A stretch of DNA of 14,465 nucleotides from Nitrospirota bacterium (GCA_024275775.1 JAJRYM010000156.1:1-14465), one strand, 5' to 3'; positions 1 through 8,888 are shown, numbered from the stretch's first letter. Program-made: numbers and translations. The notes: generated from the letters alone by a model not told the origin.

Positions 1-25
1 CGGTTCATTCGCGTTTCTCATAGGC

Positions 26-1237
26 ATGAGCCGCGCTCCCGGAGTGTCGAGGTTTTTCCCCGAAGATTATTTCAGAAGGGCGCTCGTAGGCCATGTCGAT
101 CTTGCCATAGTTTGCTGGCTGTTGATTTCCGCCATAGTGCTCTGGAACCATTTCCTCGAAAGCCCGCAGTATAAGAACAGTTTCCGCATCGGCGCGCTTG
201 GCGTTGCGCTGATTTTCCTTTCGGCTCTGCCCGGTTCCGGAGAGGCCGTTTTGAACAACTACGTGCCGGTCATTACCAGCCCATTTTTCTTTACCGGGAT
301 TTGCCTGTTCTTTCTCGCTTTTTGCCTTTCCGTTTTCGACTTTTTGGGAGAAGGCATTCTGGGTCTTTCATCGGAAAACCAGTATAAGAACATACTCTCC
401 GTATCGGTGATTATCGCTTTGATAATGATGGTCGCCGTGCTGGCATCTCTGCTCCTGCTGGGAGGGGATAAACTGGACGACCAGCATTTCTATTACGAGC
501 GGCTTTTCTGGGCGCCCGGCCATATTCAGCAGATACTCAACGCTTCCCTTCTGGTTATCGTTTGGTACGCGCTTTTGCGGGAAACAATCGGCAAGGAGCC
601 GGAATTCTGGGGGTTTCTCGAATACGCCAACAGAATCCTGATAATCTCGGCTCTTCTCCTGCTGGCGATGCTCTTTTTCTTCGACCCGCTAGACAGGGTT
701 TTCAAAATCGGCGCGGAGGTAATCTACGGGCTGGGGATAGGCATTCCGCTTTTTATGCATATAGCCAATATTTTTCGCCAGTATATTTTTGTAGCCCGCA
801 AGCCGGCCTCATCCGCCTTGCTGATTTCGATAATTATTTATCTTTACGGCATATTCATAGCCTACGGAGGGTTTGATAACGATACCCGCGTGCCTGCCCA
901 CTACCATGGCGCGGTTACCGCGCTTACCCTCGCGCTGATGGGCTTTGCCTTTCATATGATTTCCGGTTTCAGAATGAAAATCGCTTTTGAAAAACTGGCG
1001 CGTTATCAGCCATACCTCTACGGTCTCGGCATGGTGTTTTTTATATCGGGGCTTTTCGTTTCCGGGCTTTTCGGAGCGCCGCGGAAAACGCCCGGCACGG
1101 ACTGGACGGATAATCCGGTGGTGTTAACCGCATTGTCGTTTATGGGAATTGGCACTTTGCTGGCCGTTGCCGGCGGAGCTTTGTTTGTCGTTTATGTCGG
1201 CGTTACCATTTACAGGGAAGAAACAGAGGATGAGTGA
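26..1237 (+). CDS. Polytopic integral membrane protein of about 11-12 predicted TM helices. It carries heme-copper-oxidase-like histidine motifs (LFWAPGH, AHYHGAV) and may be NnrS-like or a divergent HCO subunit-I homolog. The reading frame is open back to nt 2, so the true start may lie upstream of the window.
   Basis: It is a 403-codon ORF made of alternating hydrophobic helices. Every reverse-frame ORF across it is short. The motif FWAPGH (nt ~506-523) resembles COX1 helix VI WFFGHPEVY, and HYH (nt ~899-907) resembles helix X HFHYV. The spacing between them, about four helices, also fits. There is no stop codon between nt 2 and the first ATG at 26. Confidence 0.7.
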   Translation: MSRAPGVSRFFPEDYFRRALVGHVDLAIVCWLLISAIVLWNHFLESPQYKNSFRIGALGVALIFLSALPGSGEAVLNNYVPVITSPFFFTGICLFFLAFCLSVFDFLGEGILGLSSENQYKNILSVSVIIALIMMVAVLASLLLLGGDKLDDQHFYYERLFWAPGHIQQILNASLLVIVWYALLRETIGKEPEFWGFLEYANRILIISALLLLAMLFFFDPLDRVFKIGAEVIYGLGIGIPLFMHIANIFRQYIFVARKPASSALLISIIIYLYGIFIAYGGFDNDTRVPAHYHGAVTALTLALMGFAFHMISGFRMKIAFEKLARYQPYLYGLGMVFFISGLFVSGLFGAPRKTPGTDWTDNPVVLTALSFMGIGTLLAVAGGALFVVYVGVTIYREETEDE

Positions 1238-1349
1238 AAAGGAAAACAAAAAAAACAGGGGCAAGTGGGTAATGCTTTTTACTCTGCTGGCTATCGCCGT
1301 TGCCATGTATTTTAGCATTATCTGGAAGATATCTACCAAAGGCCCCTGA
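1230..1349 (+). CDS. 39-aa single-TM miniprotein (MSEKENKKNRGKWVMLFTLLAIAVAMYFSIIWKISTKGP), a possible small accessory subunit in the CydX/CcoQ style
   Basis: Its ATG at 1230 overlaps the upstream stop in the sequence ATGAGTGA, giving an 8-nt overlap suggestive of translational coupling. GGGAAG sits 9 nt upstream. The product has a basic N-terminus, one hydrophobic helix and a short polar tail. The ORF ends 105 nt before the ABC ATPase gene. Confidence 0.45.
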   Translation: MSEKENKKNRGKWVMLFTLLAIAVAMYFSIIWKISTKGP

Positions 1350-1453
1350 CTCTTCTGCAAACCGGCTTTTTTCTTTTACGAGGCCGGAGTGATACTATCT
1401 CAGGATAGCGCACAGACTTAATTCACAACCAGTCGGCACGAAAGGGTTTTTGC

Positions 1454-2407
1454 ATGACAGCTGTTCAAATAACCGCACTACGCCACACCTACCCCGGCAA
1501 AAAGAAAACCGGCGCTGTAGAAGTATTGCGCGGGATAGACCTGACCGTTAAGAAAGGCAAAATTTTCGGGTTTCTTGGGCCTAACGGTTCCGGCAAAACA
1601 ACGCTTTTTAAAATACTGTCCACCCTGTTTCCTCCGTCTTCCGGCCGCGCCGAAATTCTGGGGATGGACATCGTTAAAAACCCGAATGAAATAAGACGCA
1701 GAATAGGCATCGTTTTTCAAAACCCGAGCCTGGACGGCAAACTGACCATCGAAGAAAATCTCGTTCATCAGGCGCATCTCTACGGCCTTTCGGGCGTCCC
1801 GATGCAAGAGAGAATAGATTTTCGGCTTAAACAGTTCTCACTTTCCGACAGGCGCAACCAGTTTGTGGAAACGCTTTCGGGCGGGCTTAAAAGAAGGGTG
1901 GAGCTTGCCAAAGGGCTTCTTCATAACCCGGAACTGCTTATACTGGACGAGCCTTCCACAGGCCTCGATCCTGCCGCGAGGCGGTCGTTATGGTCGGCCC
2001 TTACAGCCCTCAGGTCGAACGACGGGGTTACCATTCTCGTTACCACCCACCTTATAACCGAGGCGGAGCAGTGCGACAGGCTGGCGATTCTCGACCGAGG
2101 TCAGGTGGTTTGCGAAGGCTCTCCTGAAGAGCTTAAAAGCGAAATCGGCGGGGATGTGATAACCATTTCAACTCCCTCGCCGGCTGAATTCGCGGAGAAA
2201 TATTCTCAGAAGTTCCACGAAAAACCGATGCTCGTTAACGGAAAAATAAGAGTGGAAAAGGCCAACGGGCATCGTTTTATTCCGGAAATAGTGGAAGCGT
2301 TGCCGGCTCTCGTTCAGGGAGTGTCGTACGGCAAGCCGACGCTCGACGATGTTTTCGTTCATAAAACAGGCCATTCGCTGGCCGCCGAAGCGGAGGAAAA
2401 AGCATGA
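1454..2407 (+). CDS. ABC transporter ATP-binding protein of the ABC-2/DrrA-NatA-CcmA-like exporter class, with a C-terminal DUF4162-type extension
   Basis: Walker A GPNGSGKTT, ABC signature LSGGLKRRVELAK, Walker B LLILDEPSTGLD and an H-loop TTH are all present. An AAAGGG ribosome-binding site lies 7 nt upstream of the ATG. Confidence 0.93.
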   Translation: MTAVQITALRHTYPGKKKTGAVEVLRGIDLTVKKGKIFGFLGPNGSGKTTLFKILSTLFPPSSGRAEILGMDIVKNPNEIRRRIGIVFQNPSLDGKLTIEENLVHQAHLYGLSGVPMQERIDFRLKQFSLSDRRNQFVETLSGGLKRRVELAKGLLHNPELLILDEPSTGLDPAARRSLWSALTALRSNDGVTILVTTHLITEAEQCDRLAILDRGQVVCEGSPEELKSEIGGDVITISTPSPAEFAEKYSQKFHEKPMLVNGKIRVEKANGHRFIPEIVEALPALVQGVSYGKPTLDDVFVHKTGHSLAAEAEEKA

Positions 2408-3180
2408 GCGGAACAATGCTTACCGTAACGACTCTCTGGAAGCGCGAGATGGTACGTTTTTATCGTGACCGTAGCCGGGTTATAGGCGGGCTCGTTCCGC
2501 CGGTGATTTTCTGGTTCTTTATAGGTTCCGGTTTCAGCGGCTCTTTCCGCGTAGGCGAAGGGGAGGGGATATCCTACCTTCTTTACTTTTTCCCCGGCAT
2601 CCTTACGCTCATATTTCTTTTCACCGCAATTTTTTCGACCATCTCCATAATAGAAGACAGGAAGGAAGGTTTTCTTCAGTCGGTTCTTGTGGCGCCTGTT
2701 CCGAGAACATCGATAGTTCTTGGCAAGGTGCTTGGAAGCGCGTCGCTGGCTTTTCTGCAGGGGATACCGTTTCTTATATTGGGTTATTTCGGCGGCATTC
2801 GGATACATCACGGGATGGTTCTGCAAACCATGATAATACTTTTCGCCATCTCTTTCGTATTCGCGTCGATAGGGTTTCTTCTGGCCTGGATTCTGGAATC
2901 CGCGCAAGGTTTTCACGCGATAATGAACATGTTTCTTATCCCAATGTGGCTGTTGTCCGGGTCGCTGTTTCCGATAGGTAATCTTCCGGGCTGGCTGGCG
3001 TGGCTTGTAAAGGCCAACCCGCTAACTTACGCCGTGGCCGCTTTGCAACGGGTTCTTTTCGACCCCGGCGTCATAAGCTCCCTGCCGACGATGAGGCAGT
3101 GCGCTATCGTAATATTTGTTTATTGCGCCGTCTGTTTCGCGGGCGCTCTTTATGTCGCTAAAAAAAGGGTAAATTACTAA
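2404..3180 (+). CDS. ABC-2 family transporter permease with 6 predicted TM helices
   Basis: Its start overlaps the ATPase stop in an ATGA junction at 2404-2407. The 258-aa product is hydrophobic throughout and has the size and topology typical of ABC-2 exporter permeases. Confidence 0.88.
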   Translation: MSGTMLTVTTLWKREMVRFYRDRSRVIGGLVPPVIFWFFIGSGFSGSFRVGEGEGISYLLYFFPGILTLIFLFTAIFSTISIIEDRKEGFLQSVLVAPVPRTSIVLGKVLGSASLAFLQGIPFLILGYFGGIRIHHGMVLQTMIILFAISFVFASIGFLLAWILESAQGFHAIMNMFLIPMWLLSGSLFPIGNLPGWLAWLVKANPLTYAVAALQRVLFDPGVISSLPTMRQCAIVIFVYCAVCFAGALYVAKKRVNY

Positions 3181-3608
3181 TGAATCTCACAGTTCTGCCG
3201 CATTTTCAGGCTTCGATGAACACTGTTTCCACCATCCTTTTGCTCACAGGTTTTTATTTCATTAAAAACGACAACCGCAGCGCCCACATGAAATGCATGA
3301 TTTCGGCGCTTGGCACGTCCAGTCTGTTTCTGGTCTCCTATCTCACCTATCACTATTACGCCGGAACGACCCGCTTCGGCGGCGAGGGGTGGATAAGGCC
3401 GGTTTACTTCACGATTCTTCTTACGCACACCATCCTCGCTATAGCTATCGTGCCGCTGGTGCTGGTAACGGTCTGGCGCGCCGCTAAGGGGAGATTCGAA
3501 ACGCACAGGAAAATAGCCAGGTGGACACTGCCGATATGGCTTTATGTGTCGGTCACCGGCGTTATAATCTATTGCATGCTCTATCATCTTTATCCGCCCG
3601 CAGGCTGA
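3180..3608 (+). CDS. DUF420 family membrane protein, CtaM/YozB-like (4 TM)
   Basis: Its start overlaps the permease stop by 1 nt (TAATG). It has the DUF420-like signature segments LFLVSYLTYHYY, ILLTHTILAIAIVPLVL, HRKIARWTLPIWLYVSVTGV, and is about 140 aa long. Confidence 0.78.
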   Translation: MNLTVLPHFQASMNTVSTILLLTGFYFIKNDNRSAHMKCMISALGTSSLFLVSYLTYHYYAGTTRFGGEGWIRPVYFTILLTHTILAIAIVPLVLVTVWRAAKGRFETHRKIARWTLPIWLYVSVTGVIIYCMLYHLYPPAG

Positions 3609-3616
3609 CGGGACGC

Positions 3617-4993
3617 GTGAAAAAAAACCGGTATCATCTGGTTACGTTTGGTTGCCAGATGAACCAGTACGATTCCGAAAAACTGGAAGGGATTCTTTCT
3701 GCGCGGGGAATGGAGCCGGCCGGCAGTCCCGATAAGGCGGATGTAATCTTCGTAAACAGCTGTTCCATACGGGAAAAAGCCGAGAGCAAGGTTTTCTCGC
3801 TTATCGGGAGGCTCGCTGGCGCAGGAAACGGCAGGAAACCGGTAATAGCTTTGGGCGGCTGTATCCCGACTCTTAGGGGGAAGGAAATTTTCCGTTCGGC
3901 GCCCGCTGTAGATTTGCTCTACGGCCCCGATTCGCTGGAAAAACTGCCGGCCATGCTGGAGGAATATTTCTACACCGGCAAAAAACAGATTGATCTGGAA
4001 TTCAGCGATTCCACCGCTTGGGACGGGCCCGACCCGTGTGTAAGGCCGAGCGACGTTACAGCGTGGGTTGGAATAATGAAAGGGTGCGACAACCGATGTT
4101 CCTACTGCGTGGTGCCGGACACGCGCGGGCCGGAGGTAAGCAGGCCGGTGGAATCCATCCTTGCGGAAGTGAAAGCTCTTGCGAAAAAAGGATACAGGGA
4201 AATAAACCTGTTGGGGCAGAACGTAAATTCGTACGGCAAAACCCTTCCCGGTTCGGTTACGTTCCCGGAGCTATTGGGGATGGCGGAAGAGATTGAAGGG
4301 ATAGAGCGGATTCGGTTTATGACCTCTCATCCGAAAGATCTTACCGACAGGCTTATCGAGCGGATGGCCGGGTCTCAAAAAATCTGCCCTTCATTGCATC
4401 TTCCGCTTCAGGCCGGTTCCGACCGGATACTTGAGATGATGAACCGGGGCTACACGGCCGGCGACTACCTGGAAAAAATCCGAAAACTCAAATCGGCCGT
4501 ACCCGGAATAACCATATCAACAGACCTGATGGTGGGATTCCCGACGGAAACCGACGATGATTTCAAAAAAACTATCGGGGTGATGGAAAAAGTTAATTTT
4601 GACTCGCTTTATCTTTTCATCTATTCCCGGCGCCCGGCAACTCCCGCCGCCGATTTTGACTGCCAGGTTCCACGCGATGCCGCCCACGCCCGGTTTGAAC
4701 AAGCGTGGGCGCTCCACCGCAAAACGGTTTCCAGGAAACTCGCCGAGTTGGAAGGAAGCACGGTTGAACTGCTGTGCGAAGGGGAATATGGTGTAAAATC
4801 TACGAAAGAAAAAGACGATGCGCTAATAACGCAGTTCGGCCGGTCTGCAGGCGGCCATAAGGTTATATTTGAAGCGGAGAAGAATTTAACAGGCAAAATA
4901 TTATCGGTTCTGGTTACCCGTTCGGCCGGTTTCAATCTTTACGGAAAGCCGGCCGCGGAAAGGAATGCACATGGGAGAAGAGACAAGAATTGA
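3617..4993 (+). CDS. miaB: tRNA-2-methylthio-N6-dimethylallyladenosine synthase (radical-SAM methylthiotransferase, MiaB family)
   Basis: N-terminal MTTase motif VTFGCQMNQYDSE. Radical-SAM cysteine triad CDNRCSYCVVP. It shows strong colinearity with E. coli MiaB (VSRP..IL.E...LA..G.REINLLGQNVN, SLHLPLQAGSDRIL, C-terminal TRAM region). The true start is the GTG at 3617, 9 nt after the DUF420 stop. The ORF-track start at 3521 would overlap DUF420 and adds a non-homologous N-terminus. Confidence 0.9.
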   Translation: MKKNRYHLVTFGCQMNQYDSEKLEGILSARGMEPAGSPDKADVIFVNSCSIREKAESKVFSLIGRLAGAGNGRKPVIALGGCIPTLRGKEIFRSAPAVDLLYGPDSLEKLPAMLEEYFYTGKKQIDLEFSDSTAWDGPDPCVRPSDVTAWVGIMKGCDNRCSYCVVPDTRGPEVSRPVESILAEVKALAKKGYREINLLGQNVNSYGKTLPGSVTFPELLGMAEEIEGIERIRFMTSHPKDLTDRLIERMAGSQKICPSLHLPLQAGSDRILEMMNRGYTAGDYLEKIRKLKSAVPGITISTDLMVGFPTETDDDFKKTIGVMEKVNFDSLYLFIYSRRPATPAADFDCQVPRDAAHARFEQAWALHRKTVSRKLAELEGSTVELLCEGEYGVKSTKEKDDALITQFGRSAGGHKVIFEAEKNLTGKILSVLVTRSAGFNLYGKPAAERNAHGRRDKN

Positions 4994-5474
4994 AATGAAA
5001 GTGGAAGGGTTGGTTCTGGACCCCGCCACAAGCATGCCGATAATAATCCTTAAGGATATGGAAGACCAGTGGACTCTTCCGATATGGGTTGGGATTTTTG
5101 AAGCCAACGCCATCGCCCTGGAAATGGAAAAAATACAGACGCCCCGGCCGATGACGCACGACCTGATAAAAAATATCTTCAATGGGTTCGAAGCCACCGT
5201 AAACCACATCTGCGTAAACGATCTGCGGGATAACACCTTTTACGCGCTTATTTCCGTTAATGTTAACGGAGAGGAAAAGATAATCGACTCGCGCCCGTCC
5301 GACGCCATCGCCATTTCCCTGCGCGTCAACGCAAAAATTCTTGTTGAAAAAAAGGTGCTTGAAGAAGCGAAGAGCTTCGATTTCGCGGGAGAGGCGGAAC
5401 TGGGTAACGACGACCAGTGGAAAAAATGGCTCGACGAGGTAAAGCCGGACGATTTCGGCAAGGACGATCAGTAA
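4971..5474 (+). CDS. DUF151 / BFN 'bifunctional nuclease' domain protein with an acidic C-terminal tail
   Basis: The N-terminal ~130 aa have the BFN-domain pattern (LVLDPATSMPIIILKD...WTLPIWVG..EANAIA...........HDL.........ICVNDL..NTFYA.I.....EE.IIDSRPSDAIAISLR). It overlaps the miaB 3' end by 23 nt in a different frame. The ATG at 4971 has AGGA 6 nt upstream. An in-frame ATG at 4965 is the alternative start. Confidence 0.8.
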   Translation: MGEETRIEMKVEGLVLDPATSMPIIILKDMEDQWTLPIWVGIFEANAIALEMEKIQTPRPMTHDLIKNIFNGFEATVNHICVNDLRDNTFYALISVNVNGEEKIIDSRPSDAIAISLRVNAKILVEKKVLEEAKSFDFAGEAELGNDDQWKKWLDEVKPDDFGKDDQ

Positions 5475-5532
5475 TCGAACCTTGTTTTCAGTTGAGCGGT
5501 CAGGGGGAAATGTTTTTTAGGGAGGTACGGGC

Positions 5533-6645
5533 ATGGCGATAATGATGGAGGTAATCGAATGGACGGATCCATCTCCGGAAGACATGATTTCCCGCTATCC
5601 CGGAAGGGGTTCGGCCGATATAAAGCTCGGCGCACAGCTTATCGTACGGGAAACGCAGTCGGCCGTATTTTACCGCGATGGCAAGGCCTGCGATTCGTTC
5701 GGGCCGGGCAGACATACTCTTAAAACCGTAAACCTGCCGATAATCACTAAACTGTTCTCCGCACCGTGGGGCTTTGAAAGCATATTCAAGGCCACGGTCT
5801 ATTTTATAAATCACAAAACCTTCACGAACATGAAGTGGGGCACCAGAGATCCCGTGGCGTTCCGCGACCGTGAGCTGGGCCTTGTCCGATTGCGGGGCTT
5901 CGGCGTTTACAGCATGAAAGTAACCGAGCCTCTTCTCTTCATAAACCAGCTCGTCGGAAGGGAAGCCCAATACTCTACAGACCAGATAGGCGACTATTTA
6001 AGGGACATAATAATATGCAGGCTTAACGACCTTTTCGGCGAAAAGCTGGATACAATTCTCGATCTGCCGGCGCAATACAAGGAGCTCGCGGCCGAACTCA
6101 AGGATATTCTGCAGAAAGAGTTTGGCAAATACGGCATAACCCTGCTCGATTTCTACATATCTTCCATCACGCCGCCCGAAGAGGTGCAGAAGATGATAGA
6201 CGAAAGAAGCGGAATGGCGGCCGTAGAGAATCTGGATCAGTTTCTCAAGTTCAAGGTGGCGAAATCGATGGATGCCGGCGGAGGCGCCGTATCCGGCGGA
6301 GCCGCGGCCGGAATAGGCATGGGAGTAGGGATGATGATGCCGGGCTACATGAGCAAAGCGTTTGCCCCGGAGCAGAGGGACTTGGAAAAGGAGTCGATAC
6401 CTACGGTGCAATGCCCCGAATGTCTGGCACATACGCCGGAAAACAGCAGGTTTTGCTACCGGTGCGGGCACCAGATGACTGCGGCCAGCATGTGCCAGAA
6501 CTGTTCCAAGGTGGTGCCGGTGCATTCCAAATTCTGCATGAACTGCGGTCATAGCCTTTCGGAAAAGCCGCACTGTTCAAAATGCGATATCGATCTTCCG
6601 TCCGGCACAAAATTCTGCCCCGGTTGCGGGGAGAAAATAGGCTGA
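5533..6645 (+). CDS. SPFH/band-7 domain protein of the COG4260 'YdjI / putative virion core protein' type with three tandem C-terminal zinc ribbons
   Basis: The N-terminus (IEWTDPSPEDMISRYPGRG...GAQLIVRETQSAVFYRDGKACDSFGPGRHTL.T.NLP...KWGTRDP) matches the COG4260 SPFH family as I recall it. A Gly/Met-rich low-complexity linker lies at nt 6268-6351. Three CxxC-x9-11-CxxC units follow at nt ~6412-6642. A GGGAGG ribosome-binding site sits 7 nt upstream of the start. Confidence 0.88.
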   Translation: MAIMMEVIEWTDPSPEDMISRYPGRGSADIKLGAQLIVRETQSAVFYRDGKACDSFGPGRHTLKTVNLPIITKLFSAPWGFESIFKATVYFINHKTFTNMKWGTRDPVAFRDRELGLVRLRGFGVYSMKVTEPLLFINQLVGREAQYSTDQIGDYLRDIIICRLNDLFGEKLDTILDLPAQYKELAAELKDILQKEFGKYGITLLDFYISSITPPEEVQKMIDERSGMAAVENLDQFLKFKVAKSMDAGGGAVSGGAAAGIGMGVGMMMPGYMSKAFAPEQRDLEKESIPTVQCPECLAHTPENSRFCYRCGHQMTAASMCQNCSKVVPVHSKFCMNCGHSLSEKPHCSKCDIDLPSGTKFCPGCGEKIG

Positions 6646-6668: not shown

Positions 6669-8069
6669 ATGCGAAACCCTCTGCTTGTATCAACCAAATG
6701 CCGCGAATGCGGCGCCCCGATAAGATACCCCGAAGGAGCCTACACGTTCAGATGCGGTTTCTGCTCGTCGGCGCTTAGAACCTCAACGGAGGGACGGGAA
6801 CTTAAATACATCATTCCCGTTAGGCTTTCCCGAAAAGACGTTCTTTTGAGCGTCAAGCGGTTAATAACAACGAACAGGAACGAATACGGCGGTTTGAAAA
6901 AAGTCAGGCATATCAGAAATATCTATAAACCGTTCTGGTACTTCAAAGGGATGGTCTACAGTGCTTGGGCGGAGGCGGGTAAAAACAAAGCCGAGCTACT
7001 GTCAAAACTGTGGTTTCATACTTTTCAGGCGAACACCGAACATATTCCATGGCTTTTTTCGCTCGGGATCAGCTCGGAAGTTCTTACGCTCGAACCTTAC
7101 GACAGCGACCGCTTCCGTGAAGAAGGAACAGTTCTGCCCGTAACTCTTAACAGGGAAGAAGCTGAAGAACAGGCGTTGCTAATAGCGGGAAGGAGCGCGA
7201 GGATAGCGGCTCCCAACGCCCCTTACTTCAGGAATTTCCTAATAGGCGAGCGGTTCTTCCTTCTATATTATCCGCTGGTGCAGGTTGTCTGTTCGGGAGA
7301 GGCCGGTTTGCAAACTCTCTATTTCGACGGCGTAACGGCTAAGTGTGTCGGTGGGGAGGAGGGGGGGAATGCTCTTACGGCGGGTCAAGAGGAAAATTAC
7401 CATATAAAATTTCTGGTGCACAGATGTAAAAACTGCGGGCATGATCTTCAGTCGGCCGATTTCGACCTGTTCTATTATTGCCGTCACTGTTTTCGCCTCT
7501 GGGAGCTGAAAGGGGACGACTATATTTCCCGCAAAGTCCGGATTATCGAACCGTCCGGCAAAGGGAAAACTTTTTACATCCCTTTCTGGCGGTTTGCTGT
7601 GGAAATCGACTCGCCCGGAACCGGAAACCATTTTGCAACGGTGGGGGATTTGAGCAGGTTCATGAAGATGGGCCGCCATCTTTTAAGAAACGAGAATCCC
7701 GATAGGCCGTTAAAGTTTTACATCCCTGCTGTCGTGGCGCGAAACGCCAGGGCTGTGATGAAACTGGCCACCCGGTTGAGCATGTTTCAGAAAGATGTTC
7801 CTCTTTCCGGTTTTTCCGAGTTCCCCTATGAAAATATCCTCAACGTGTCACTGCCTGAACAGGAGGCGGTGGAGATGCTCGAACCGCTTGTCTTCTCAGT
7901 CATAGGAAGGGCCGACCCGCAGGCGGTTTCTTTCTATAAGGATTTTCAAATTAAAACGATTGCAAGAGAGCTGATCTGGTATCCGTTTGAGGATAAGGGA
8001 GCTATGCTTGCGGATCATTATCACGATTATTATTTTCCAAGGAAATCACTCGATATCAGAGCTTTCTAG
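6669..8069 (+). CDS. Zinc-ribbon protein built from an internal tandem duplication (two units of [CxxC..CxxC ribbon + ~200-aa domain with a PFW(Y/R)F motif]). Its function is unknown. It is the likely partner of the upstream SPFH protein.
   Basis: It starts 23 nt after the SPFH gene, with GAGGGG as ribosome-binding site. Ribbon 1 is CRECGAP..x14..CGFC (nt ~6699-6770). Ribbon 2 is CKNCGH..x14..CRHC (nt 7425-7490). The halves carry matching motifs: YKPFWYF vs YIPFWRF, LNREEAEEQALLIAGR vs LPEQEAVEMLEPLVFSVIGR, and FLLYYPL vs LIWYPF. Confidence 0.8.
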   Translation: MRNPLLVSTKCRECGAPIRYPEGAYTFRCGFCSSALRTSTEGRELKYIIPVRLSRKDVLLSVKRLITTNRNEYGGLKKVRHIRNIYKPFWYFKGMVYSAWAEAGKNKAELLSKLWFHTFQANTEHIPWLFSLGISSEVLTLEPYDSDRFREEGTVLPVTLNREEAEEQALLIAGRSARIAAPNAPYFRNFLIGERFFLLYYPLVQVVCSGEAGLQTLYFDGVTAKCVGGEEGGNALTAGQEENYHIKFLVHRCKNCGHDLQSADFDLFYYCRHCFRLWELKGDDYISRKVRIIEPSGKGKTFYIPFWRFAVEIDSPGTGNHFATVGDLSRFMKMGRHLLRNENPDRPLKFYIPAVVARNARAVMKLATRLSMFQKDVPLSGFSEFPYENILNVSLPEQEAVEMLEPLVFSVIGRADPQAVSFYKDFQIKTIARELIWYPFEDKGAMLADHYHDYYFPRKSLDIRAF

Positions 8070-8438
8070 AGCTTTGCCGTTTTCAGTAGAGTCCGGGCAG
8101 TCGCAGCCTAAAAGCTCTTTGGCTTTAGCGCGAGCTTTTTCTTTTTCTACCGGCGTGATGTATTTTAAGGCTATCGAAATGGCGTACGCCAGCACGCCGA
8201 GGTCGTCGGAGTAGCCTACGGCCGGGATGAAATCCGATATCGCGTCCATGGGCACTATGAAATAAATCAACGCTCCGTATATCGTGGTTCTAACCCACGC
8301 GGGGAGGTCGGGTTTTTCCAGCGTGTAAAAGAGGATGAGCGCTTTGCAAATTACTTTACAGCCGATATCTTTCGCGTACTTTTTAAGCTTTTGCCAGAAA
8401 CGCTTTTCCGAGAATTTTTCTTCTTCCAGCGTATTCAT
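8046..8438 (-). CDS. DUF1232 (YkvA-like) small membrane protein
   Basis: Family signature LILFYTLEKPDLPAWVRTTIYGALIYFIVPMDAISDFIPAVGYSDDLGVL, which matches YkvA ...[30 protein letters not shown].... It begins 3 nt after the NUDIX stop on the minus strand. Its last 24 nt overlap the convergent plus-strand gene. Confidence 0.75.
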   Translation of the reverse strand: MNTLEEEKFSEKRFWQKLKKYAKDIGCKVICKALILFYTLEKPDLPAWVRTTIYGALIYFIVPMDAISDFIPAVGYSDDLGVLAYAISIALKYITPVEKEKARAKAKELLGCDCPDSTENGKALESSDIE

Positions 8439-8441
8439 CGG

Positions 8442-8888
8442 CTACTGTTTACGGGAAAAGTAATCTTCAAGAATCCAGGCGTGGTCGAATCCCAGAACAT
8501 CCGGCAGATTTTCGCGCGTAAAGACCCCTATATCGTCGGCATCGTCGTCGGCTTTCGGAGTCCCGTCGGCTGTGGCGGTGAAAACCGTAGAGATTGTATG
8601 CAGGCGCGGGTCGCGCTTCGGGTTGGAATATACGTGAAACTGTTTCAGGTCGCGCAGATCCAGCGAGGTTTCCTCTTTAGCTTCGCGCGCGGCGGCGGTT
8701 TCCACCGATTCGCCGTAGTCCACAAAACCGCCGGGAATAGCCCATACTTTCGGTTCGTTCTTCCGATGGATAAGGATGATTCCGCCGCCTTCCATCTCGA
8801 TGATGATATCCACCGTAGGTTTCGGATTTTGGTAAACCTCTACCGTCTCCCCGCATGCGGGACATTTCACGGAACGCTTTACAGCCAT
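8442..8888 (-). CDS. NUDIX hydrolase with an N-terminal CxxC motif
   Basis: Canonical Nudix box [24 protein letters not shown] (Gx5Ex7REUxEExGU). The protein is 148 aa. CPACGE lies near the N-terminus. Confidence 0.88.

Follow-up and report, generated by a model that had tools for sequence, protein, structure and literature searches.

The first 3.6 kb of a 14,465-nucleotide (nt) stretch of Nitrospirota bacterium DNA (GCA_024275775.1, JAJRYM010000156.1:1-14465; the whole stretch is hereafter the window) raise the question of what a membrane protein resembling subunit I of heme-copper oxidases (HCO) does when its metal site is incomplete, and of whether the genes behind it belong with it. Five open reading frames (ORFs), all on the + strand, occupied nt 1-3608 of the window. 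A first-pass annotation, made from the sequence alone, had read them as one tightly coupled unit composed of an HCO- or NnrS-like membrane protein, a miniprotein, an ABC-2 exporter encoded by two genes and a DUF420 (CtaM-like) protein. The product of ORF 1 is named HCOL here (HCO-like subunit I). Its residues are numbered according to P0001, a 92%-identical relative (window number = P0001 number minus 20), unless window numbers are specified.

Identity and predicted fold of HCOL

By its sequence and modeled structure, HCOL is a genuine, non-canonical homolog of subunit I of the HCO superfamily, in line with one of the two identities offered by the first-pass annotation. COX1 (PF00115) was the only Pfam family matched by HCOL (45.5 bits for a cut-off of 34.8), and no NCBIfam model matched HCOL, the miniprotein or DUF420. 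A single-sequence search of the PDB with HCOL returned no match, and a search with the family profile reached only the ba3 oxidase of Thermus thermophilus (E=2e-5). The AlphaFold2 (AF2) model of P0001, built with 81 homologs, displayed 12 helices (pLDDT 94, pTM 0.93), and Foldseek aligned this model to subunit I structures of the A and B families with TM-scores of 0.75-0.78. Subunit I of eNOR was the nearest relative of HCOL, the hhalign comparison of the HCOL profile with eNOR-type subunit I giving a probability of 99.7% (E=2e-26, 26% identity).

The gene is cut by the edge of the window. ORF 1 remains open as far as nt 2, while its homologs are ~431 amino acids (aa) long and start ~21 residues before the window edge, so that the ATG at position 26 is internal and ~21 N-terminal codons of HCOL lie upstream of the window, an extension that the first-pass annotation had anticipated. 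On the contig of P0001 (L090), the HCOL start codon was found 19 nt past the end of an upstream gene, identified as ctaB by its 70% identity to the C-terminus of CtaB from L001, the closest long contig.

Heme sites and metal site

HCOL keeps the heme environment and the distal pocket but has lost the CuB/FeB cage. The His of transmembrane helix 2 (TM2), His51, was found in all of the 254 HCOL-family sequences covering this position. In TM6, Trp and Gly were each found in 264/264 sequences, His in 263/264 and Gln in 263/265; the three positions of the TM10 H-Y-H motif were conserved in 264/264, 263/264 and 263/264 sequences, and R381 and K382 in 262/263 each. Residues conserved at 93% or more among 266 members encompassed R31, H51, Y107-x-P109, W190-x-x-G-H-x-x-Q197, W208, P-A-H-Y-H (318-322), Q356 and R381-K382.

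His194 of TM6 was the only CuB-type His retained in HCOL. Helix VII displayed no counterpart of the usual His pair: H282/H283 of ba3 and the AHH of eNOR aligned to Leu/Phe in HCOL, and the membrane core of the helix showed 0-3 His per column and no acidic residues across the 266 family members. With a helix VII devoid of His, two of the three CuB/FeB His ligands, not one, are absent from HCOL. The G-H-I-Q-Q-I/F motif of TM6 also left no place for the cross-linked Tyr of O2-reducing HCOs (TM6 His+4, or TM7 in the C family), the TM6 position being Ile or Phe, or Gln if a gap is allowed.

The FWAPGH, HYH and FMHIANIF motifs pointed out by the first-pass annotation were all present, FWAPGH in TM6 and HYH in TM10 by alignment. 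The single His of FMHIANIF, previously assigned to helix VII, was displaced to helix VIII by the AF2 helix bounds (TM6 181-216 with His194, TM7 226-246, TM8 252-280 with His273), on which the ba3 and eNOR alignments agreed; in the latter, it has a His counterpart. His273 and Tyr262 of helix VIII were considered as universal replacement metal ligands and rejected, as only 130/266 and 157/266 family members, respectively, carry them. The P0115 lineage (apparently the L051 locus) lacks His273, yet harbors the miniprotein and DUF420.

Table 1. Genes and predicted functional positions of HCOL in the first 3,608 nt of the window
Feature	Position (nt)	Strand	Basis or remark
HCOL, 3' 411 codons of a ~431-aa HCO subunit-I paralog	1..1237	+	Frame of nt 2; Pfam, AF2, Foldseek, hhalign
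TM2 His codon (window His31 = P0001 His51)	92..94	+	Predicted low-spin heme axial ligand; aligns to ba3 His72
TM6 motif W-A-P-G-H-I-Q-Q (Trp170, His174, Gln177, window numbers)	509..532	+	Aligns to ba3 W229/H233 and eNOR GHSSQQ
Helix VII, wholly hydrophobic	617..679	+	Boundaries from the AF2 model; no His-His counterpart
Helix VIII His codon (FMHIANIF)	758..760	+	Clade-specific; K-channel-analog position, aligns to ba3 Thr312
TM10 H-Y-H (P0001 H320, H322)	899..907	+	Predicted high-spin and low-spin heme ligands; align to ba3 H384/H386
R-K pair, TM11-12 loop (P0001 R381-K382)	1082..1087	+	Counterpart of the ba3/canonical heme-propionate PRR
Miniprotein, 39 aa, one TM helix	1230..1349	+	Equivalents in ~40 loci; pN/pS
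ABC transporter ATPase, DrrA-like	1454..2407	+	PF00005, E=1e-33
ABC-2 type permease, DrrB-like	2404..3180	+	PF01061, E=3e-33
DUF420 (CtaM-like), 4-TM	3180..3608	+	PF04238, E=1.2e-47

The junctions between these genes (Table 1) were as the first-pass annotation had read them. The HCOL stop (1237) and the miniprotein start overlap by 8 nt (1230-1237), the ATPase and permease genes by an ATGA (2404-2407), and the permease and DUF420 genes by 1 nt (3180) within a TAATG (3178-3182).

Gene neighborhood of HCOL

Genes encoding heme A synthesis were the most frequent neighbors of HCOL. In a census of 80 loci from species-representative genomes, established by tblastn and clustering, ctaA-ctaB-HCOL were adjacent on one strand in ~63 loci distributed under five phylum-level labels. 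These partners, the most informative ones for HCOL, lie upstream and outside the window. COX3-SCO1-COX2-COX1 opened the operon in roughly 19-24 of the 80 loci; three loci with this upstream cox operon belong to Nitrospinota (L005, L009, L010). The inspected representatives of the co-encoded COX1 were canonical A2-type proteins harboring FWFYSHPAVY, VWxHH and HFHY. DUF420 directly followed HCOL and the miniprotein in 28 loci. The full operon is (COX3-SCO1-COX2-COX1, A2-type)-ctaA-ctaB-HCOL-miniprotein-DUF420/CtaM, of which the window carries the distal part in its first 3.6 kb.

Thermodesulfobacteriota, Nitrospirae and Aquificales, with HCOL identities of 35-50%, also displayed the HCOL-miniprotein-DUF420 arrangement, always behind ctaA-ctaB. 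Together, these three genes constitute a cross-phylum module tied to heme and oxidase biogenesis genes. The Thermocrinis/Hydrogenobacter clade displayed ctaA-ctaB-HCOL only, with no oxidase gene ~9 kb upstream or 4 kb downstream. In more distant clades CtaB adjoins HCOL, and L087 showed the order COX2-COX1-miniprotein-HCOL-CtaB-SCO1. Some distant members consisted of a lone HCOL gene beside a convergent CtaB-(CtaA)-SURF1 cox cluster.

In L001, which belongs to a Nitrospinota-like metagenome-assembled genome (MAG), a complete ccoNOQP-ccoGHIS cbb3 cluster and DsbD_2 precede ctaA-ctaB-HCOL (L001:1-7100). No A-type cox gene was found within 10 kb of ctaA-ctaB-HCOL in this contig, so the heme A genes there adjoin only HCOL.

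The CtaA encoded beside HCOL displayed only three invariant His in the L001-L079 alignment (His56, His123 and His203, Thermocrinis albus numbering). The Thermocrinis-type CtaA has been listed with an H278D substitution of the fourth heme ligand (PMC8239418).

Paralogs linked to eNOR and domain fusions

A second genomic setting of HCOL was found in Aquificaceae and in two groundwater MAGs, where an HCOL paralog directly follows the genes of an eNOR-type enzyme. In these loci, CuA subunit II carries CNEFCGIGHHMM, and the eNOR-type subunit I displays GHSSQQ and the helix VII AHH. TM10 of this subunit I reads HFK in the Aquificaceae copies and in L042, and HFH in the groundwater copy L012; His/Lys ligation of the low-spin heme is known from some eNORs (PMC11214002). 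The paralog was followed by SCO1 in most loci, then by NirS in the Aquificaceae loci.

The locus L062 (7747-15268) encodes in succession the CuA subunit II, the eNOR-type subunit I, the HCOL paralog (31-nt overlap), SCO1, NirS and a second cytochrome d1/c protein. The same order was observed in L063, L074, L077, L080 and L081, and partly in L042 and L012, and upstream of this type of operon lies a divergent gene for a cytochrome b/Fe-S fusion. Both HCOL copies, eNOR-linked and ctaAB-linked, were present in Hydrogenobacter sp. Uz 6-8 (L074 and L048) and in Ca. Pampinifervens sinense (L062 and L040).

Several family members were fused to other domains. HCOL was joined to SCO1 in P0126 and P0146, to CtaB (UbiA family) in P0134, to an N-terminal cytochrome b in P0155 and P0269, and to C-terminal TPR repeats in P0160, P0224, P0245 and P0255. 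These partners (copper chaperone, heme O synthase, quinol-oxidizing cytochrome b, TPR) hint both at biogenesis and at electron transfer. In a hydrothermal-vent metagenome (L084:8001-9682), a distant HCOL of 452 aa was followed by an overlapping gene for a 114-aa monoheme cytochrome c, a layout resembling that of NorC/NorB, and no cox or cta genes were present at this locus.

The miniprotein

The 39-aa ORF with a single TM helix, as recognized in the first-pass annotation, is a real conserved gene. Its product combines a basic N-terminal end with a single TM helix and a tail of conserved sequence, (Y/F/W)KI..KGP. Equivalents of 36-44 aa overlapped or closely followed the HCOL stop in ~40 loci of Nitrospinota, Thermodesulfobacteriota, Nitrospirae and Aquificales. 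Within clades, nonsynonymous differences (pN, 0.13-0.23) were below synonymous ones (pS, 0.37-0.84; pN/pS ~0.2-0.35), indicating purifying selection. Searches of Pfam and NCBIfam gave no match for the miniprotein.

Subunit IIa of ba3-type oxidases is recognized by one helix, a size of ~34-70 aa, a PX1-3G(T/A) motif, a conserved Trp and a gene upstream of subunit II (PMC3128077). This identity was rejected for the miniprotein, as the PX1-3G(T/A) motif was absent from the miniproteins of all clades and no subunit II gene lies downstream.

In a Nitrospinales MAG (L006:11272-12764), two unrelated genes, one SLT-like and one FliL, separate HCOL from the miniprotein, which remains directly upstream of the ABC ATPase. 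This arrangement is a hint that the miniprotein could be a partner of the genes downstream of it and not of HCOL.

ABC-2 exporter and DUF420

The ABC-2 pair corresponds, on its profile matches, to a generic exporter (ABC_tran and ABC2_membrane). The ATPase scored 289.5 bits against NCBIfam TIGR01188 drrA (cut-off 312.45) and the permease 177.8 bits against TIGR01247 drrB (cut-off 223.05), both thus remaining below the DrrA/DrrB subfamily cut-offs. Among the 80 loci, the pair was found between the miniprotein and DUF420 in Nitrospinota only. The housekeeping genes MiaB and BFN were as syntenic as the ABC-2 pair in Nitrospinota loci, so gene order alone cannot tie the pump to the module. The exporter is a Nitrospinota-specific insertion outside the conserved module. 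Of the coupled unit that had been proposed, HCOL, the miniprotein and DUF420 stood, as they co-occur across phyla, while the exporter had to be set apart. An ABC ATPase found after DUF420 in some Aquificales was judged unrelated, having no adjoining permease; the sole ORF checked was Der/EngA, on the other strand. The PDB search gave one weak match for the ABC-2 permease and none for DUF420.

The fifth ORF matched PF04238 over its full length (profile positions 1-130 of 130), which bore out the DUF420 identity given by the first-pass annotation. Its alignment displayed three invariant His (His36, His83, His109). DUF420 has been proposed as a half-CtaA homolog (PMC8239418), and its hhalign match to CtaA was weak here (probability 22%, E=1e-3). 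The function of CtaM is known from the genetics of Bacillus subtilis and Staphylococcus aureus (PMC4958251, PMC9145763, PMC13344008). Without CtaM/DUF420, aa3 and caa3 oxidases do not become active, although heme A still enters them, and the protein was recently proposed to export copper (PMC9145763, PMC13344008). Like the CtaM gene of S. aureus and B. firmus, which lies near ctaB and cox genes (PMC9145763), the DUF420 gene of this module is linked to cox and cta genes; unlike that of Bacillota, it is preceded by HCOL and the miniprotein. Since ctaA-ctaB often lie behind a complete A2-type cox operon, DUF420 may act on the A2 oxidase, and not on HCOL, in the loci that encode this oxidase as well.

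Comparison with known HCO families

eNOR is an HCO-superfamily nitric oxide (NO) reductase related to the B family, whose activity has been shown biochemically; it harbors heme As in both sites and its operon often includes ctaA (PMC11214002). HCOL shares with eNOR subunit I the G-H-x-x-Q-Q-(I)-N...V-W-Y motif of TM6, the lack of a cross-link Tyr and the genomic link to heme A synthesis, and HCOL of the window clade also shares the helix VIII Y-x10-H. In contrast, eNOR possesses the helix VII His-His and a CuA cupredoxin subunit II, neither of which was found for HCOL; no cupredoxin gene belonging to HCOL was detected in the window or in ctaAB-type loci. HCOL is also ~125 residues shorter than eNOR subunit I.

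The T. thermophilus ba3 oxidase (TM-score 0.78) aligned with HCOL at the heme ligands, the TM6 Trp-His and the Arg pair, and its ~34-aa one-helix subunit IIa recalls the 39-aa one-helix miniprotein encoded next to HCOL. HCOL lacks counterparts of ba3 His282, His283 and Tyr237, and lacks a subunit II.

Altered three-His metal sites are shared by HCOL with two other HCO families, NOD and gNOR. In NOD, one FeB His is replaced by Asn. In gNOR, one His is replaced by Asp and the cupredoxin-fold subunit is kept, and it was called the first family so altered (PMC11214002). HCOL differs from both, as two ligands are lost to hydrophobic residues and a whole helix gives nothing to the site.

Possible role of HCOL

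HCOL is tentatively considered as a redox-active, heme-A-dependent membrane protein rather than a canonical oxidase. It would bind two O/A-type hemes made by the adjacent CtaB and CtaA, and the miniprotein would be its small subunit. Electrons would be delivered by quinol, or by cytochrome b or cytochrome c in other clades, and a small oxidant would be turned over at a copper-free heme in a His/Gln/Trp pocket. DUF420 and SCO1 would act as maturation factors of the operon, and the Nitrospinota ABC-2 pump would be an add-on to the module. Following the criteria of PMC11214002, the lack of the cross-link Tyr and of two of three His argues that HCOL is not a canonical O2 or NO reductase; unable to hold a canonical CuB or FeB, it would function neither as a proton-pumping O2 reductase nor as a standard NO reductase. 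A redox role is hinted at by the cytochrome b fusion of P0155, by the cytochrome c partner in L084 and by the distal residues His194, Gln197 and Trp190, which are almost absolutely conserved.

Several points weigh against such a role. Neither the window nor most of the 80 loci encode an electron-entry partner (cupredoxin, cytochrome c or recognized quinol site) alongside HCOL. The constant ctaA, ctaB, SCO1 and DUF420 neighbors and the SCO1, CtaB and TPR fusions are at least equally compatible with an assembly factor. A proton path to the active site was not evident in the HCOL sequence either, as the Tyr and His of helix VIII, at K-channel-like positions, are not family-wide.

The main rival, only slightly less probable as the evidence is divided between the two, is that HCOL is a scaffold. 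Acting with the miniprotein and CtaM, it would take heme O/A from CtaB/CtaA, keep it in a pocket like that of subunit I and load it into nascent catalytic subunits of the A2 oxidase, ba3 or eNOR. ctaA-ctaB being the most constant neighbors of HCOL, the three-gene unit of Thermocrinis/Hydrogenobacter without a nearby oxidase gene, the position of HCOL between the catalytic subunit and SCO1 in eNOR operons, the fusions to CtaB, SCO1 and TPR, and the loss of catalytic metal ligands with heme ligands kept are all consistent with such a function. NifEN offers an analogy: this scaffold paralog of the nitrogenase NifDK is encoded with cofactor-synthesis genes and binds the cofactor without being catalytic. 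NifEN and HCOL belong to unrelated protein families, and the comparison serves as an illustration, not as evidence. The transfer of heme A from CtaA to subunit I is still unexplained in the literature (PMC9145763), and HCOL, if it were a scaffold, would be the missing heme-a insertion step; just as new would be the alternative in which HCOL is the first catalytic member of the HCO superfamily to be copper-free and heme-only. However, hemes are deeply buried in the HCO fold, which would make their release difficult, and a storage role would not obviously require the distal His, Gln and Trp, which are invariant. Moreover, HCOL shares a cluster with SURF1 in some clades, and neither the cytochrome b fusion nor a cytochrome c partner at a locus devoid of cta and cox genes fits a chaperone.

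That HCOL is an alternative subunit I, assembling in certain conditions with the co-operonic COX2/COX3 or with eNOR subunit II and using the miniprotein as a CcoQ-like subunit, is improbable. In favor of this idea, many loci place HCOL in one operon with either all the genes of an A2-type cox set or those of both eNOR subunits (I and II), and a small gene for a one-helix companion is present; the cbb3 oxidases of Pseudomonas, with their orphan CcoN-CcoQ pairs, provide an analogy. Against it, genes for cox subunits II and III are missing from the vicinity of HCOL in many loci, among them L001, the closest full-length locus. HCOL and the co-encoded A2 subunit I are but distant relatives (no tblastn match at 1e-5), and HCOL, lacking the helix VII His, could not form the binuclear site that such an isoform would require.

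Still less probable is that the five genes are chance neighbors without functional unity, their overlaps reflecting a compact genome. The restriction of the ABC-2 pair to Nitrospinota, the equal synteny of MiaB and BFN there and the start of MiaB only 9 nt after DUF420 would speak for it, but the recurrence of HCOL-miniprotein-DUF420 across phyla at 35-50% HCOL identity goes far beyond gene order kept by shared ancestry, and this explanation is largely refuted for these three genes. The other identity put forward by the first-pass annotation from the pattern of His residues, an NnrS-type heme/copper membrane protein of the NO response, can be practically dismissed, as HCOL gave no Pfam match to NnrS (PF05940) at E<=1, exceeded the COX1 gathering score and adopted in the model a 12-helix HCO fold with a TM-score of ~0.77 to oxidases.

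Remainder of the window

The longest ORF for MiaB starts at a GTG at 3521, inside DUF420, but its Pfam homology begins only at residue 37, and an alternative GTG at 3617 lies 9 nt past the DUF420 stop; the true start is therefore most likely GTG 3617, not 3521. A promoter and terminator scan of nt 1-5600 returned in-gene noise only and nothing between genes.

The rest of the window encodes housekeeping functions: a BFN nuclease, an SPFH protein with zinc ribbons, DapA, EF-P, AccB, AccC and an SNF transporter. The SPFH/Band-7 protein (5533-6645) harbors a double zinc ribbon at its C-terminus and is followed by a gene for a 466-aa protein (6669-8069) that fits no family and matches a zinc ribbon (HypA-like) only weakly at its N-terminus; the two may be an uncharacterized pair. 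On the - strand, positions 8046-8888 encode a DUF1232 membrane protein and a NUDIX hydrolase, tail-to-head with dapA, and the N-terminus of the NUDIX hydrolase resembles a CxxC zinc ribbon.

Family size, distribution and significance

A word-indexed search retrieved 233 close relatives of HCOL of ~430 aa, from Nitrospinota (56-62% identity), Thermodesulfobacteriota, Nitrospirae and Aquificaceae, the latter including the cultured Thermocrinis, Hydrogenobacter and Pampinifervens. The HCOL of the window is an ordinary member of this family and comes from an uncultured organism resembling Nitrospinota. Searched against 1.84 billion cluster representatives, the HCOL profile matched 564 at E<=1e-30, a number that rose to no more than 1435 when the limit was relaxed to E<=1e-3, indicating a discrete clade standing apart from the bulk of canonical HCOs; family size is accordingly given as at least 564 clusters at 50% identity.

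The HCOL clade is a large, unnamed and apparently undescribed branch of the HCO superfamily. A literature search, in which subscription journals were not covered and an earlier mention is thus possible, returned no description of a subunit-I family deficient in CuB His or of ctaAB-linked HCO-like genes. A 2024 survey found the active-site His fully conserved in every HCO family except gNOR (PMC11214002). Members of the HCOL family are named 'cbb3-type cytochrome c oxidase subunit I' at NCBI, a generic Pfam-derived label under which aerobic respiration or NO reduction would be over-predicted in MAGs.

HCOL thus represents a widespread family, ranging over Aquificota, Nitrospinota, Nitrospirota, Thermodesulfobacteriota and other groups, in which two of three metal ligands are missing and the heme environment is almost perfectly preserved. 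The transfer of heme A from CtaA into subunit I was listed among the unsolved steps in a 2022 review (PMC9145763). The tight linkage of HCOL to ctaA and ctaB makes it directly testable both whether an HCO scaffold can support chemistry without CuB or FeB and by which route heme A moves from its synthase to subunit I.

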